Source of the DNA: an uncultured Parabacteroides sp.
Lineage (GTDB): Bacteria > Bacteroidota > Bacteroidia > Bacteroidales > Tannerellaceae
Length of the DNA: 64,000 bases
Assembly (NCBI GenBank): GCA_963560035.1
Contig: CAUWMZ010000002.1
Coordinates: 35,685-99,684, forward strand
Direction: 5' to 3'
In this document: piece by piece, positions 30,851 through 49,146 of the stretch
Layout: each line of letters begins with the position of its first letter
How positions within the stretch are numbered: position 1 is the first letter of the stretch
The notes under the pieces: model-generated
What the model was told of the DNA's origin: nothing
The model's database searches: none
Seen by the model: the letters and a program-made list of their open reading frames with translations, nothing else
Translations under genes and position numbers: made by a program

Positions 30851-32647
30851 ATGCAAAAGATCAGAAACATTGCGATTATCGCGCACGTAGACCACGGCAA
30901 AACGACGCTTGTGGATAAGATGTTATTAGCTGGTAAGCTTTTCCGTGAAGGACAGGCTGAACCAGATCAGTTCATGGATAATAATGATCTGGAACGAGAA
31001 CGAGGTATAACGATTCTAGCCAAGAATGTGTCTATCAATTATAAGGGATATAAAATCAATATTATTGATACTCCGGGGCATGCGGATTTCGGTGGAGAGG
31101 TTGAGCGTGTCTTAAATATGGCTGATGGTTGTTTGCTGTTGGTGGATGCTTTTGAGGGCCCGATGCCACAGACTCGTTTCGTCTTGCAGAAAGCGATCCA
31201 GATAGGATTGAAGCCGATTGTGGTGATCAATAAGGTAGATAAGCCTAATTGCCGTCCGTCAGAGGTGCAAGAGATGGTGTTCGATTTGATGTTTAGCTTG
31301 GATGCGACTGAGGATCAGTTGGATTTTCCGACAATCTATGGATCTGCTAAGCAAGGCTGGATGTCTGAAGATTGGAAGAAACCGACTCAAGATATTACGG
31401 CTGTATTGGACGCTATTATCAAATATATTCCGGAACCGCAAATGCTGGAGGGTACTCCGCAGATGTTGATTACTTCATTAGATTATTCAAAGTATGTGGG
31501 GCGTATCGCTGTGGGCCGTGTACATCGTGGAGAATTGAGAGAAGGTCAGGACGTTATGCTTTGCAAGCGCGATGGTTCTATGGTGAAATCGAAAATTAAG
31601 GAACTAGACGTGTTCGAGGGATTGGGCCGTACAAAAGTGCAATCTGTAAAGTCTGGTGATATATGCGCTGTTATTGGTATTGACGGCTTTGAGATCGGTG
31701 AGACAATCGCTGATATTAATGAGCCGGAACCATTGCCTACAATCGCTATCGATGAGCCTACGATGTCTATGCTCTTTACGATCAATAACTCTCCGTTCTT
31801 TGGTAAGGATGGTAAATATGTAACATCTCGTCATATTCATGACCGCTTGATGAAAGAGTTGGATAAGAACTTGGCCTTGCGCGTTGTTCCGACAAATTCC
31901 GCTGATTCATGGTTGGTTTATGGTCGTGGTGTGCTTCACTTGTCTGTCTTGATCGAGACAATGCGTCGTGAGGGATATGAGTTGCAGGTTGGTCAGCCGC
32001 AAGTTATCATTAAAGAGATAAATGGAGAGAAATGTGAGCCGGTTGAGCAATTGACTGTCAATCTTCCGGAAGATTGCGCAAGCCGTATTATAGATATGGT
32101 GACAAAGCGTAAAGGTGAGATGACTATGATGGAGAGCAAGAATGGACGTATGCATTTGGAGTTTACGATTCCTTCTCGCGGTATCATTGGATTGAATAAC
32201 GCTGTGCTTACCGCTTCTGCGGGTGAGGCGATCATGGCGCATCGTTTCTTGGAATATCAACCATGGAAAGGTGAGATAGAGCGTCGTGTGAATGGTTCTA
32301 TTATCGCTATGGAAACGGGTCAGGCTTTCGCTTATGCTTTGAATAACTTGCAGTCTCGTGGTCGTTTCTTTATCGCTCCGGGCGATGAGGTTTATGCGGG
32401 TCAGGTTGTTGGTGAGCATACAAAGGAAAATGACTTGGTTGTGAATGTGACAAAATCTAAGAAGTTGACCAATATGCGTGCTTCAGGTTCTGATGATAAG
32501 GTTTCTTTGGCTCCACCTATTGTGTTTAGTTTGGAAGATGCTCTTGAGTATATTAAGGGCGATGAATATGTGGAGATCACTCCAAACTATATGCGCATGC
32601 GTAAGATCATATTGGACGAGACGGAGCGTAAGCGTCAAGGAAGATAA
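30851..32647 (+). CDS. typA: Translational GTPase TypA/BipA
   Basis: [52 protein letters not shown] and CTD ([13 protein letters not shown]). Confidence 0.97.
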
Positions 32648-32674
32648 ATCGGTACGGAATAATATATATATTGT

Positions 32675-32708
32675 AAAGCGGATATGCGAATTGCGTATCC
32701 GCTTTTTT
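32675..32708 (+). terminator. Intrinsic terminator of typA
   Basis: AAAGCGGATATGC/GCGTATCCGCTTT stem with one G-U pair, followed by a T-run. Confidence 0.8.
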
Positions 32709-32793
32709 GTTTGTTCCGGACGTTTAAGTCGCAAGTCTTAAGAAACCGGATTTGCTTGATAAACGAAAATAGAAATAGCCTAAAAAGGGCTGT

Positions 32794-32887
32794 TTAAGTG
32801 ATTAACTAAGCACTTGTCGTTAGATTAACTAAGCACTACTACTAGTCGTAAGTTATTCACTTGAGTAGTGAATAACTATTTACTTAA
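32794..32887. repeat. 94-bp TTAA-bounded nested-palindrome element, copy A
   Basis: Four ~20-bp AAGTG-N10-CACTT-like units at 23-24 bp period. Reverse complement of 32795-32886 aligns without gaps to 48809-48900 at 74/92. Confidence 0.8.
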
Positions 32888-33027
32888 GGCGCTGTTTTTG
32901 GACGGATATTGAGCGCTTTCTCTCTTTCTGCGATTCCTTGTTCGTAAGGGTTTGTCTTTTGGGTTTTGTGAAGCTAAGAGAGGTATTTAAGGGTATAGGT
33001 ATGTTTGGGTTTGGTAGCGTAAAAATG

Positions 33028-33058
33028 AAAAAGCCCCTGCGAATGCAGAGGCTTTTTT
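33028..33058 (-). terminator. Intrinsic terminator of the TPR lipoprotein gene
   Basis: Minus strand GCCTCTGC-attc-GCAGGGGC followed by TTTTT; T-runs on both strands. Confidence 0.8.
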
Positions 33059-33079
33059 GTATGGTGTAAGTAGTATAGA

Positions 33080-34771
33080 TTACTTAACTAATGCTGCGAA
33101 ATCAGAGTTTGTAGCATATTTAGCGAACTCAAGATCGATAGCTGCTTCCTTAGCCATGTTCTTATCAGCTGCGATAGCGGCTTTCAAGTTGCTGATAACA
33201 CCGTTAGTGTCGTTAGTGCGAGCGGCAACAACAGCTTTTAGATAAGAAGTAACAGCGTCAGGATTAGCAACACCGTTCAAAGTTTGAGATGCTTTGCTGT
33301 AATCCTTAACCATGATCTGAGCCAAAGCGGCATTGTTAGATTTAACAGAACCGAAAGAGTTAACAGCCTTAGCGTATTCACCTTGCTCTAAGTAAAGAAC
33401 ACCAAGAGCCTCGCTTAATTCTTCAACACCAGAAGCGTTTCCGAACATTTGTTGAGCCTTAGCTTGGTCACCCTTAGTTAATGCGATCAAACCTAAGTTC
33501 ATGTTTGCAGAAGCATTGTTCTCGATAGAGTTAGATTTGTTGAACATCTTTTCAGCTTTGTCTAAGTCACCAGCTTTGAATGCCATCATACCTATGTTGT
33601 TCCAAGTACGATAGTCGTTGGGATATAACTCAGAAGCTTTTGTATAAATAGCCATTTTCTCTGCGTCATCGTTAGTTAATGTAGCAGCGTAAAGGATTTC
33701 CTCAACGTTCAATTCTTTAGGATTGCTCTTAGCTAAAGCGCTGATCTCGTCATCAGATTTACCGATGATCTCGATGTTTGCAGTCAAACGAGAACGACGT
33801 AATTGCGGAAGGATTGTCTCAGCCAAGTCAGAGTAAACTGCAGAGATGTTTTTGATCTCTTTCTCTCTTGTCTCAGGATCTTGGTACATAGAAAGAACGC
33901 GTAATACTAGATCTTTGTCTTGTAAGTTAGAGCCAGCAACTAATTCTTTGAAACCATCCCAGTCTTGTGCAGTGTAACGTGCGTCAACAGGAGCGTCAAC
34001 TTTCATCTTCTTCAATTCTTTTGCTAAATATTTAGAAGTGTTGTGCTCACGGTTTTCAGCAAGACCTGTATTTAATTCAACACCACCATCAGGAGAAGCG
34101 TAAGCGCCGATCTCGATAGCAACGTTTTGGTTAGGAGCTTCTTCAGCGTTCTTAACAAGATCTTTCCATTCTTTGATAGCGTCAGAGTTCAATTCGCTAG
34201 CGCGAAGATTTGCTTGTTGGATCAAGAACATGATGTTTGCGTTATGAGCTTCTTTGATCACACGTTGGAATTTGTCAGCTGCGATTGCTGCAGTTGCTGT
34301 ACCGGCGTCTGCCAACTCAGATGTTGCGATAACACCCTCGCCGATTTTTACATCCGGCAATTTAACAGTCTTGTTTTTGATTTTAGCGTCGAAAGTCAAA
34401 TATAACTCAGATTTCTTCATCTCAGGTTTGTAAGTGAAAGAAGATTTCATTGTTACGTTTGCGCCTTCTTTTTGAGGAATAACTTGGTTGTTACCTTTTA
34501 CTTTCTCACCTTGGTAAGTGTAAGAAGTGCCCCAAGCTTCGCCACCTTGGTAGCGTAATACCGGAGTAACGGTTACAACTGCTTTTTTGTTAAACCATTT
34601 AGCCGGGAAAGTTGCGTTGATAGTTACAGGAACTTTGCCACCGATAGCCTCTAGCGGTTGCGGCTCAGCTTTAATGTACTGCTCTGCCAACGGTTTCAAC
34701 TTGTTAGAACAAGAAGAAAGCGTTAAAATGGCTGCCAATACGAAGAATGGCAATAAAAACTTTCTGTTCAT
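33080..34771 (-). CDS. TPR-containing lipoprotein with OmpA_C-like segment
   Basis: Lipobox LSSC; IEIGAYASPDGGVELNTGLAENR resembles an OmpA_C motif; C-terminal TPR-like repeats (YRTWNNIG, ANMNLG, EALGVLYL); strongly biased codons. Confidence 0.75.
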   Translation of the reverse strand: MNRKFLLPFFVLAAILTLSSCSNKLKPLAEQYIKAEPQPLEAIGGKVPVTINATFPAKWFNKKAVVTVTPVLRYQGGEAWGTSYTYQGEKVKGNNQVIPQKEGANVTMKSSFTYKPEMKKSELYLTFDAKIKNKTVKLPDVKIGEGVIATSELADAGTATAAIAADKFQRVIKEAHNANIMFLIQQANLRASELNSDAIKEWKDLVKNAEEAPNQNVAIEIGAYASPDGGVELNTGLAENREHNTSKYLAKELKKMKVDAPVDARYTAQDWDGFKELVAGSNLQDKDLVLRVLSMYQDPETREKEIKNISAVYSDLAETILPQLRRSRLTANIEIIGKSDDEISALAKSNPKELNVEEILYAATLTNDDAEKMAIYTKASELYPNDYRTWNNIGMMAFKAGDLDKAEKMFNKSNSIENNASANMNLGLIALTKGDQAKAQQMFGNASGVEELSEALGVLYLEQGEYAKAVNSFGSVKSNNAALAQIMVKDYSKASQTLNGVANPDAVTSYLKAVVAARTNDTNGVISNLKAAIAADKNMAKEAAIDLEFAKYATNSDFAALVK

Positions 34772-35243: not shown

Positions 35244-36872
35244 ATGGCAACACCTCCGTTTCATTATGAGCCGATGTTCCAAAAGGGACTGGACACAACA
35301 GAGTATTATTTGCTTACTAAAGATTATGTTTCCGTTTCAGAATTTGAAGGAAAACCAATCTTGAAAGTAGCTAAAGAGGGTTTGACAGCGATGGCTAACG
35401 CGGCTTTTCGTGATGTTTCATTTATGCTTCGTCGCTCTCATAACGAGCAAGTCGCAAAGATCTTGAGTGATCCAGAGGCTTCGGATAATGATAAATATGT
35501 AGCTTTGACATTCTTGCGTAATGCAGAAGTGGCTTCTAAAGGTGTGCTTCCTTTTTGTCAAGATACAGGAACTGCTATTATTCATGGCGAAAAAGGACAG
35601 CAGGTATGGACAGGATTTTGTGATGAGGAAGCGCTTTCTTTAGGTGTTTATAAAACATATACAGAAGAGAACTTGCGCTATTCTCAAAACGCTCCGCTTA
35701 CAATGTATGAGGAGGTCAATACAAAATGTAATTTGCCGGCTCAAATCGATATTGAAGCAACTCAAGGTATGGAATATGAGTTCCTTTGCGTAACAAAGGG
35801 TGGTGGATCCGCAAATAAGACTTATTTGTATCAAGAGACAAAAGCTATATTGAATCCAGGAACTCTTGTTCCTTTCTTGGTGGAGAAGATTAAATCTTTG
35901 GGTACAGCTGCTTGTCCTCCATATCATATCGCGATTGTTATTGGTGGTACTTCAGCCGAGAAAAACTTGCTTACGGTGAAGTTGGCTTCCACTCGTTTTT
36001 ATGATAGCTTGCCTACTACAGGAAGCGAGGGTGGTCGTGCATTCCGTGATATTGAGTTGGAGAAAGAAGTTTTGGCTGCGGCTCATAACATTGGTCTAGG
36101 TGCGCAGTTTGGTGGTAAGTATCTAGCTCATGATGTACGTATTATTCGTTTGCCTCGTCATGGTGCTTCTTGTCCTGTTGGTTTAGGTGTAAGCTGCTCC
36201 GCAGACCGCAATATTAAATGTAAAATTAATAAAGATGGTATTTGGATTGAGAAATTGGATAGCCATCCAGGAGAATTGATTCCAGAAGAACTTCGTCAAG
36301 CTGGTGAGGGTGATGCTGTAAAAGTAAATTTGAATCAGCCGATGGCCGAGATTTTGAAGATTTTGGATAAGTATCCGGTATCTACTCGTTTGTCTTTGAG
36401 TGGTACAATAATCGTGGGTCGTGACATCGCTCACGCAAAGTTGAAAGAGCGTTTGGATCGTGGAGAAGATTTGCCACAATATATTAAAGATCATCCTATC
36501 TATTATGCAGGTCCTGCGAAGACTCCGGCAGGTATGGCTTGTGGTTCTATGGGACCGACAACAGCGGGTCGTATGGATCCTTATGTAGACTTGTTCCAAA
36601 GCCATGGCGGTAGTATGATTATGTTGGCGAAGGGAAATCGTAGCCAGCAAGTGACAGATGCTTGTAAGAAGCATGGCGGTTTCTATTTAGGTTCTATTGG
36701 TGGACCGGCTGCAATCTTGGCTCAAAATAATATTAAGAGCATTGAATGTCTTGAATATCCAGAATTGGGAATGGAGGCTATTTGGAAGATTGAGGTAGAA
36801 GATTTCCCTGCGTTTATCTTGGTTGATAACAAGGGTAATGACTTCTTTAAGCAGATCAAGCCTCGTTGTTGA
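35244..36872 (+). CDS. Fumarate hydratase class I (Fe-S, FumA/FumB type)
   Basis: [38 protein letters not shown] and GSIGGPAA motifs. Confidence 0.95.
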
Positions 36873-48703: not shown

Positions 48704-48722
48704 TTTGATCTTTATATTTTTG

Positions 48723-48771
48723 AAGAGGGGATTATCAATGAGTGTAAAAACTCATGATAATCTCCTCTTTT
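48723..48771 (+). terminator. Long-stem terminator of the fucosidase gene
   Basis: AAGAGGGGATTATCA-ATGAGT/ACTCAT-GATAATCTCCTCTT followed by TT. Confidence 0.75.
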
Positions 48772-48807
48772 GTTTAATTGTTTTGTAACTATATGGTTTA
48801 CAGTATA

Positions 48808-48901
48808 TTAAGTGAATAGTTAATCGCTTGTCAAGTGAATAACTATTCACTAGGGGTAGTGATTAACTAATCTAACAACAAGTGAATAGTTATTCACTTA
48901 A
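48808..48901. repeat. 94-bp TTAA-bounded nested-palindrome element, copy B
   Basis: 24-bp imperfect terminal inverted repeats (20/24); four AAGTG-N10-CACTT-like units; homologous to 32794-32887 in reverse orientation. Confidence 0.8.
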
Positions 48902-49019
48902 AATAGGCTTAATAGTTCTTGAAAATCGATAGTGGTAAGAGGAGGAAACAGTGGTGTAAGTTGAGATACAGTAAGGATAATCACGACAACAAAATAGGGG
49001 AAAAAGGATTTTTGATGGA

Positions 49020-49072: not shown

Positions 49073-49146
49073 TGGTCCCACTTGGGCTTGAACCAAGGAC
49101 TCCCTGATTATGAGTCAGGTGCTCTAACCAACTGAGCTATAGGACC
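49073..49146 (-). tRNA. tRNA with CAT anticodon, most likely tRNA-Ile2 (lysidine-modified)
   Basis: GGTCCTATAGCTCAGTTGGTTAGAGCACCTGACTCATAATCAGGGAGTCCTTGGTTCAAGCCCAAGTGGGACCA; cloverleaf; C4-G69 and C5-G68 pairs (TilS determinants), G1-C72 (not initiator); CCA not encoded. Confidence 0.9.

Follow-up and report, generated by a model that had tools for sequence, protein, structure and literature searches.

A four-unit palindromic repeat dispersed in a Parabacteroides genome matches the spacer array of a DUF4248/HU-HIG cassette and is most likely a scattered protein-docking array

Introduction

Dispersed extragenic palindromes, arranged in ordered arrays with fixed spacers, are known from enterobacteria as REP and BIME sequences, including the IHF-binding RIB/RIP elements. 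They are enriched at the 3' ends of genes and between convergent genes, and some are bound by IHF or gyrase. REP sequences of enterobacteria also protect mRNA 3' ends. The iterons of plasmid and PICI/P4-type origins have a period of 22–24 bp and four or more repeats. For Parabacteroides and the other gut Bacteroidales, we know of almost no described repeat families.

Within the Bacteroidales, the BrickBuilt elements of Porphyromonas gingivalis consist of 23-nt bricks with leader and tail modules and occupy about 19 intergenic positions (Klein et al. 2015, PMC4596501). The bricks are head-to-tail direct repeats in a variable number of 1–22.8; IS5-type 12-bp TIRs (GAGACCTTTGCA) are present, and a GAAA duplication accompanies the one filled/empty pair described (PMC4596501). 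One copy, BrickBuilt_14, adjoins the HU-type gene PGN_0872 (PMC4596501). Here, we compare with these systems a 94-bp element that is present in two copies in a 64,000-nucleotide stretch of DNA (hereafter the window) from an uncultured Parabacteroides sp.

Results

Two copies of the element in the window

The window covers positions 35685–99684 of contig C2 of a 2.82-Mb genome (39.5% G+C, 107 contigs, 99.6% complete). A first-pass annotation of the window, made from the sequence alone, had pointed out two 94-bp copies, A and B, with four units each, and both were recovered at the same positions. The reverse complement of 32795–32886 aligns with 48809–48900 at 74/92 identities without gaps, compared with 60/92 in the direct orientation, indicating that the two copies are homologous and have a polarity. 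Each copy contains four 20-bp dyads of the form nAGTGAWTARYTAWTCACTn, starting at offsets 0, 23, 47 and 70, with TTAA at its start and end. With up to three mismatches allowed, the dyad AAGTGAATA-NN-TATTCACTT occurs five times in the window, always within copy A or B, where 0.19 occurrences are expected from shuffled sequences. The features of the two loci are as follows.

32675..32705, + strand: terminator-like hairpin and T-run of typA (gene 30851–32647), about 90 nt upstream of copy A
32760..32793, + strand: leader flank of copy A, GAAAATAGAAATAGCCTAAAAAGGGCTGT, which fits the family leader gAAAAA-N-ATTAAGGCCT (PWM score 22.4)
32794..32887, + strand: copy A, 94-bp core (nhmmer 84.5 bits on +, 53.7 on −)
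32796–32815, 32819–32838, 32843–32862 and 32866–32885, + strand: dyad units of copy A, separated by spacers of 3, 4 and 3 nt
32888..32912, + strand: tail flank of copy A, GGCGCTGTTTTTGG..., a weak fit to the family tail CTGTnnATCAAT..TTATA (PWM score 2.3)
33028..33057, − strand: terminator-like hairpin of the convergent TPR gene (33080–34771, −)
48775..48807, − strand: tail flank of copy B, reading CACTTAATATACTGTAAACCATATAGTTACAA on the − strand (PWM score 24.0)
48808..48901, − strand: copy B, 94-bp core in the opposite orientation (nhmmer 88.0 bits on −, 62.9 on +)
48810, 48833, 48857 and 48880: starts of the copy B units on +, with the centre CACTAGGGGTAGTG on +
48902..48935, − strand: leader flank of copy B, reading ...CTATTAAGCCTATTT/TAAGTG on the − strand
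49073..49146, − strand: tRNA gene converging on copy B (RF00005, 70.4 bits)

The gene upstream of copy A was identified as typA by its Pfam GTP_EFTU/BipA_C domains. Both copies had been described as lying in spacers closed off by two convergent terminators. A terminator scan bears this out for copy A. At copy B, a long hairpin with a T-run at about 48722–48772 and another hairpin behind the tRNA gene can be read from the sequence, but the scan called neither of these long-loop hairpins.

The typA–TPR spacer of the sister species G001 (L051 1413–1501) is 88 bp long and holds one bidirectional terminator, compared with 433 bp, two separate terminators and the element in the spacer analysed here (32648–33079). 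This difference suggests that the spacer was rebuilt rather than changed by a single insertion event. The 88-bp spacer, considered as a possible empty site, was rejected because its one terminator does not make it a clean one. A third, degenerate copy (50.2 bits) lies on the same contig at C2:33234–33314, about 2.4 kb before the start of the window.

Anatomy of a family of 73 loci

A profile built on full-length BLAST hits and run with nhmmer over the genome contigs identified 73 loci of the family, which agrees with the earlier expectation of many copies per genome. We derived the anatomy from an alignment of 61 copies, the flank-base counts from 60 copies and the spacer-type counts from 63 copies. 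The core of 93–96 bp consists of unit 1, a 3-nt GTC-like spacer, unit 2, a 4-nt centre CCCC, unit 3, a 3-nt GAC-like spacer and unit 4. The units start at 0, 23, 47 and 70 in every full copy, so the constant length and phasing noticed in copies A and B extend to the family. Nearly all copies have four units; one of the few two-unit forms bears both flanks (C4:35333). The orientation of the units is mixed, with FFRF in 14 copies, RFRF in 8 and FFFF in 4. A genome-wide scan returned 23 as the best period; the palindrome family alone scored, and the scan found no other 18–29-bp periodic array in this genome. Conservation per position amounts to 1.2–1.6 bits in the dyads, 0.66–1.2 bits in the spacers and about 0.6 bits in the leader and tail. 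Within the pooled unit, the inner TA..TA reaches 1.7–1.9 bits and the outer AGTGA/TCACT 1.0–1.5 bits.

About 35 bp on either side of the core show weak but clear conservation, with a different sequence on each side. The leader consensus is ttatAaa-N6-aAAAa-N4-aCaATTAAgGCCT-nTTn (short form gAAAAA-N-CaATTAAGGCCT), and the tail consensus is AA-nnnn-CTgTttATCAat-N3-TTAtA-N6-ataAa. Both modules recur at unrelated loci. About nine long forms of 240–330 bp extend about 115 bp on each side, and three of them at unrelated loci (C1, C49 and C89) are 93–96% alike. The long-form copies at C1:59039–59369, C89:1243–1567, C49:36655–36946 and C16:10857–11129 (about 290–330 bp) carry a diverged array with CGGCT arms resembling the cassette arrays of sister species (see below). 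Each is accompanied by direct repeats ATTGGnnnAAAAnGAAA on either side, and a loose inverted similarity, TTTGACAYAC, is seen at their ends.

The first-pass annotation had interpreted the TTAA bounds as a possible TA/TTAA target duplication. The bounds are present in both window copies, but they do not hold for the whole family. The right end CACTTAA is conserved (T in 56, A in 49 and A in 55 of 60 copies), whereas the base before AAGTG on the left is T in just 33 of 60 copies, leaving nearly half of the copies without the left TTAA. TTAAGTG and CACTTAA are reverse complements of each other, which makes TTAA the outermost part of the palindrome, kept on the right side only, rather than a common boundary. 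Together with the conservation that continues past both ends, this result argues against a target duplication.

The centre of the dyad flips between copies as a block, AACT to AGTT and back, with intermediates being rare in the 61-copy alignment; a separate remark on copy B in the first reading agrees with this flip. The change resembles the outcome of hairpin-loop inversion or of inverted gene conversion and not that of point mutation. In five copies (C5:8012, C10:21177, C18:28338, C3:83460 and C13:22366, judged by eye), the orientation of the whole core is opposite to that of its leader and tail, an arrangement that recombination between inverted outer units would be expected to produce. The block flip and the inverted cores point to occasional palindrome events at the DNA level.

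Genomic context, age and range

All copies are intergenic, and none overlaps an ORF of at least 80 codons. With gene calls from an ORF heuristic, 30 of 63 copies were found in convergent spacers, where 9–12 are expected (about 3-fold enrichment), and 7 of 63 in divergent spacers, where 10–17 are expected (chi-square p of 1e-8 to 1e-12 for the bias in spacer type). The T-runs of upstream genes are concentrated 40–90 nt upstream of the element leader, indicating that copies usually sit after a pre-existing terminator. Where the neighbouring genes are in tandem, the element runs with them in 11 cases and against them in 15, and thus has no strand preference. The Bacteroidetes −7 promoter motif TAnnTTTG has no fixed position near the element.

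The mean pairwise identity of the cores is 72% and the maximum 95%, and no two copies are identical, from which we conclude that the palindrome family is old. The strict dyad pattern has matches in 6 of 78 other Parabacteroides species genomes, 1–12 in each as opposed to 104 here. The family is confined to the P. distasonis clade, and the other genomes have about 18 copies or fewer, although these counts, obtained with the strict pattern and BLAST, are lower bounds. The genomes with matches include the nearest relatives, which are 85–87% identical in the TPR gene. All six sister species keep the four-unit plan and the 93–96-bp core, and in their copies the palindrome extends to GGCT...AGCC. 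A scan for the exact pattern over 185,579 genomes, one per species, placed the element in Parabacteroides records only; two other matches, in Saprospiraceae and Clostridia MAGs, were dropped as they did not fit the profile. Phage records had no match to the element, and matches among plasmid records were limited to two P. distasonis records.

The same array in the DUF4248/HU-HIG cassette

One copy, at C9:22840–22931, begins 4 nt after the stop codon of the only DUF4248 gene of the genome and lies 130 nt upstream of a HU-HIG gene, which is followed by Amidase_2; capsule genes adjoin. The whole cassette, DUF4248/array/HU-HIG/Amidase_2, spans C9:22562–24225 (L056 3063–4729) between UDP-glucose dehydrogenase and Wzz/tyrosine-kinase capsule genes, with DUF4248 at C9:22562–22828 and HU-HIG at C9:23064–23534. 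We know of no ligand or role for either the HU-HIG or the DUF4248 family. The same array occupies the corresponding DUF4248-to-HU-HIG spacer of a P. distasonis-type complete genome (G035) and of a further genome (G059), and these loci are orthologous. The laboratory strain P. distasonis ATCC 8503 has the orthologous cassette as well, along with about 12–18 copies of the element. When copies were mapped between this genome and the sister species, the cassette spacer was the one position in common. The four units of a cassette copy all share one direction.

We took 29 further DUF4248 loci from 78 congeners. All nine Parabacteroides DUF4248-to-HU-HIG spacers, together with two that have a second HU type, gave a best self-similarity period of 23 (24 in one), and seven of the nine exceeded the 99th percentile of 314 control spacers. 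Repeat listing revealed 3–13 units at a spacing of 22–23 bp in the cassette spacers, some direct and some inverted. The arrays belong to three unrelated sequence families, A (AAGTGAATAACTA...), B (AAGATGnnnCATCTT) and C/D/E (GAATGCCyrTyrTAAG), and these track three clades of the DUF4248/HU-HIG pair. DUF4248 genes that lack a HU-HIG neighbour or belong to other Bacteroidales families mostly have no 23-bp arrays, and we therefore claim the link only for the Parabacteroides DUF4248 and HU-HIG cassettes. Judged by sequence, the core of the element is the same kind of array as that of the DUF4248-to-HU-HIG spacer, and at one locus it is the same sequence.

In other species, the canonical cassette has the order VapE-like primase-helicase, DUF4248, array, HU-HIG and amidase (L070). 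The VapE-like gene is absent from this genome, and the G035 and G059 cassettes have no VapE beside the array. Among the loci taken, no A-type cassette was found in G036 and G045, two species with dispersed copies. The flanks of the long forms and dispersed copies have no demonstrable homology with the cassette spacer, and the nhmmer alignment is confined to the array. HU-HIG adjoins 1 of the 73 copies, and the remaining 72 are orphans. Of the six HU-like genes in the genome, two lie within 250 bp of a copy; one of these is the canonical HU gene on C78 (PF00216, 93 aa), where the copy lies 134 nt downstream (C78:934–1446, L097). The AlphaFold model of DUF4248, computed from a single sequence, had a pLDDT of 52 and was too poor to reveal a DNA-binding fold. 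Sequence searches against the PDB returned no hit for DUF4248, and those for HU-HIG were weak matches to HU.

Signs of mobility and the search for a transposase

Indirect signs of mobility are the modules found at unrelated loci, the sub-families and truncated forms, and an expansion specific to the clade. The earlier proposal of a mobile element with a transposase partner found no backing in the gene content: a Y1/RAYT gene (PF01797) is absent from the 99.6%-complete genome, with control genomes responding to the search, and the only IS with visible ends (GGGTGTCCAGTT...) has termini unlike those of the element. Every dyad match in the genome belongs to an element locus, and the assembly, which lacks the IS bodies, shows no longer partner with matching ends. 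The BrickBuilt IS5-type TIR, searched with up to two mismatches, had 176 hits in the genome and none at a consistent position; seven hits fell within 500 bp of an element, with about 4.6 expected.

No empty site was seen either. Joined leader-plus-tail empty targets do not occur in the genome, and the histogram of distances peaks only at 90–100. Contigs for a filled/empty look-up were reached via exact flanking proteins. The typA, HGSNAT-like and TP_methylase loci were filled, with identical spacing, in every spanning metagenome or Logan contig, at most 24 per locus and all from near-identical strains. Several metagenome contigs break inside the repeat. The loci of sister species are only about 72–87% identical and not syntenic.

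The IS family with visible ends is unrelated to the element and has ends of the form TA/GGGTGTCCAGTT(C/T)(T/A)ACGTTCC. It breaks about 17 contig ends, has a 220-bp MITE form, and is located at C21:26563–26782, C36:1669–1888, the end of C91 and the start of C80. Three of its roughly 17 insertion points are inside palindrome copies, at TTA/TA in the centre of a unit, despite the palindrome family making up only about 0.25% of the genome.

Tests for conserved pairing

Three pairing models, with four unit hairpins, junction hairpins or one long hairpin, were counted on the 61-copy alignment. In all three, the paired fraction is the same as after column shuffling. There is no surplus of double changes, and G-U (G-T) is not more frequent than A-C on either strand. 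Copy B folds better than its shuffles (z = −5.5 to −5.7), and copy A has z = −1.5 to −2.0. In Rfam, only the tRNA in the window scored above the gathering threshold, the other matches up to E = 10 being weak chance hits of the hairpin type. The lack of covariation and of an Rfam family indicates that the sequence of the half-sites is maintained, and not their pairing. The literature searched names no such family either, which leaves standing the first impression that the repeat belongs to no named family; nor is it a mere pair, given the 73 loci.

Discussion

On balance, we lean towards the reading that the element is a BrickBuilt-like leader–array–tail repeat, the core of which would be an orphan docking array for a DNA-binding protein encoded in the cassette. 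Set against a transposon cutting at TTAA, a scattered protein-docking array is the most likely identity of the element. The suggestion in the first-pass annotation of a four-site array for a DNA-binding or nucleoid protein thereby gains circumstantial support, from the same array type in the DUF4248-to-HU-HIG spacer in three species and from the 23-bp-period arrays in this spacer of all Parabacteroides cassettes covered. Further points in favour are the number and convergent placement of the copies, the fixed architecture, the concentration of conservation in the dyads, the maintenance of half-site sequence and not of pairing, the flanks shared by unrelated loci, the array families that track the protein clades, and the copies near two HU-like genes. 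Given that the core matches this spacer array, each dyad is most likely a site for a cassette protein. We predict that it would be bound by a dimer, with HU-HIG as the first candidate and the DUF4248 product as the second. The fixed pitch of 23–24 bp could let four dimers load side by side and cooperatively. The spacing of 23.3 bp, however, corresponds to 2.2 helical turns and does not provide exact phasing on the same face, which counts against a docking array. The same holds for the position of a single copy out of 73 beside HU-HIG, an alignment with the cassette spacer that is restricted to the array, the two species (G036 and G045) with dispersed copies but no A-type cassette among the loci taken, the DUF4248 genes of other families that mostly have no such arrays, and the failure to find a TIR/TSD pair, a partner enzyme or an empty site. 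Packaged with leader and tail, the array may have been copied to about 73 intergenic places by an activity that is probably extinct. Those that persist would mostly be the ones that follow terminators in convergent spacers, where a copy is harmless. The dispersed copies might then act as orphan docking arrays and possibly as local nucleoid anchors or insulators, with whatever benefit this may bring to the host.

Part of the evidence could also be explained by a selfish MITE mobilised in trans by the transposase of an IS; its outer units would be the TIRs, TA/TTAA the duplicated target, and it would have no docking role. Copies are numerous and scattered, all of them in intergenic DNA and limited to one clade, and the family includes sub-families and truncated two-unit forms (C4:35333, for example). 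The close similarity of three long forms at unrelated loci fits as well, and BrickBuilt, the closest counterpart described so far, has been assigned to the MITEs (PMC4596501). We nevertheless regard this explanation as unlikely. TTAA is inside the palindrome, only 33 of 60 copies have the left T, and asymmetric conservation continues for about 35 bp past both ends. Neither joined leader-plus-tail targets nor an empty allele were seen, the latter at three loci with at most 24 contigs each from near-identical strains, and identical copies are lacking. The sole IS with visible ends has unrelated termini, and the BrickBuilt/ISPg1 TIR is absent. Nor does a MITE account for the native occurrence of this array architecture in the DUF4248-to-HU-HIG spacer. 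Mobilisation of a REP/REPIN family by a RAYT (IS200/IS605-type Y1 transposase) is suggested by the short, dispersed, intergenic palindromes, often between convergent genes and in inverted pairs. This idea is close to refuted by the absence of PF01797 from an almost complete genome in a search to which controls responded, and a fixed set of four units with leader and tail departs from the doublet plan of REP sequences.

The cassette itself raises the question of whether the units are the sites of its VapE-like primase-helicase, as in PICI/SaPI or P4-type systems, so that the dispersed copies would be orphan iteron-type origins, either dead or acting as decoys that titrate the initiator of an incoming element. 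A VapE-like/DUF5906/DUF3874 primase-helicase gene just upstream of DUF4248 and the array in the canonical cassette, the uniform direction of the four units in the cassette copies, and a period of 22–24 bp with at least four repeats, which is typical of iterons, all speak for such an origin. Yet this genome has 73 arrays and an intact DUF4248/HU-HIG pair without a VapE-like gene, and the orthologous cassettes of G035 and G059 also lack VapE at the array. DUF4248 separates the array from VapE, and it is HU-HIG that the array abuts. Moreover, 73 origins per chromosome are implausible unless inert. We consider orphan origins improbable on these grounds. A role at the RNA level, as a REP-like 3'-UTR stabiliser, a terminator or a small RNA acting via palindrome hairpins, is more doubtful still. 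Read-through transcripts could include copies, which lie 20–90 nt behind the T-runs of upstream genes, and copy B folds far better than its shuffles. Copy A, however, is no better than shuffled sequences, and compensatory changes are missing in all three pairing models, as is any excess of G-U over A-C. The tandem contexts (15 antisense, 11 sense), the lack of an Rfam match and the usual position after an existing terminator also argue against an RNA element.

Returning to the docking array, a further-reaching and rather speculative possibility is that HU-HIG or its DUF4248 partners are sequence-specific binders for which each clade has its own array as an address, and that the approximately 73 copies, one such address repeated at terminator-distal intergenic sites, form a programmable nucleoid-anchoring system. 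If this were true, one small cassette beside capsule genes would serve to structure the chromosome, or to insulate it, at dozens of convergent gene ends, and its docking sites would form a mobile set. If the dyads are binding sites, 73 natural sites and one cassette make the function of a nucleoid-protein family directly testable, and BrickBuilt-type elements with 23-nt repeats could be explained as spread docking arrays and not as junk. The family is also of practical interest as a clade-specific marker and as a repeat that disrupts short-read assemblies, in which contigs ended inside it.

Among the known systems, the element resembles REP/BIME sequences in its placement and possibly in its predicted protein docking. 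It differs from them in a genome without RAYT, in having four 20-bp dyads at 23–24 bp with a leader and tail, and in its presumed binder, which would be a HU-HIG or DUF4248 protein instead of IHF or gyrase. With iterons it has the period and the repeat count in common, and the canonical cassette adjoins replication-type genes. Unlike iterons, it occupies 73 chromosomal sites, is dyad-symmetric, and has no initiator gene in the genome. Compared by description, BrickBuilt is the closest relative. Both occur in the Bacteroidales and have a core with a 23-nt period, with a leader and tail that are complete in some copies and partial or missing in others. Copies of either element are exclusively intergenic, number in the tens, are not identical to one another and are restricted to a species or clade, and in both a copy adjoins an HU-type gene (BrickBuilt_14 at PGN_0872; here on C78 and C9). 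In contrast to BrickBuilt, the units of the element are dyads in mixed orientation and nearly always number four, the genome search found no IS5-type TIR, and no filled/empty pair was seen at three loci in near-identical strains. Because of its dyad units, their mixed orientation, the fixed number of four and the lack of a TIR, we file the element by analogy as a variant of the BrickBuilt kind rather than as a member of that family.
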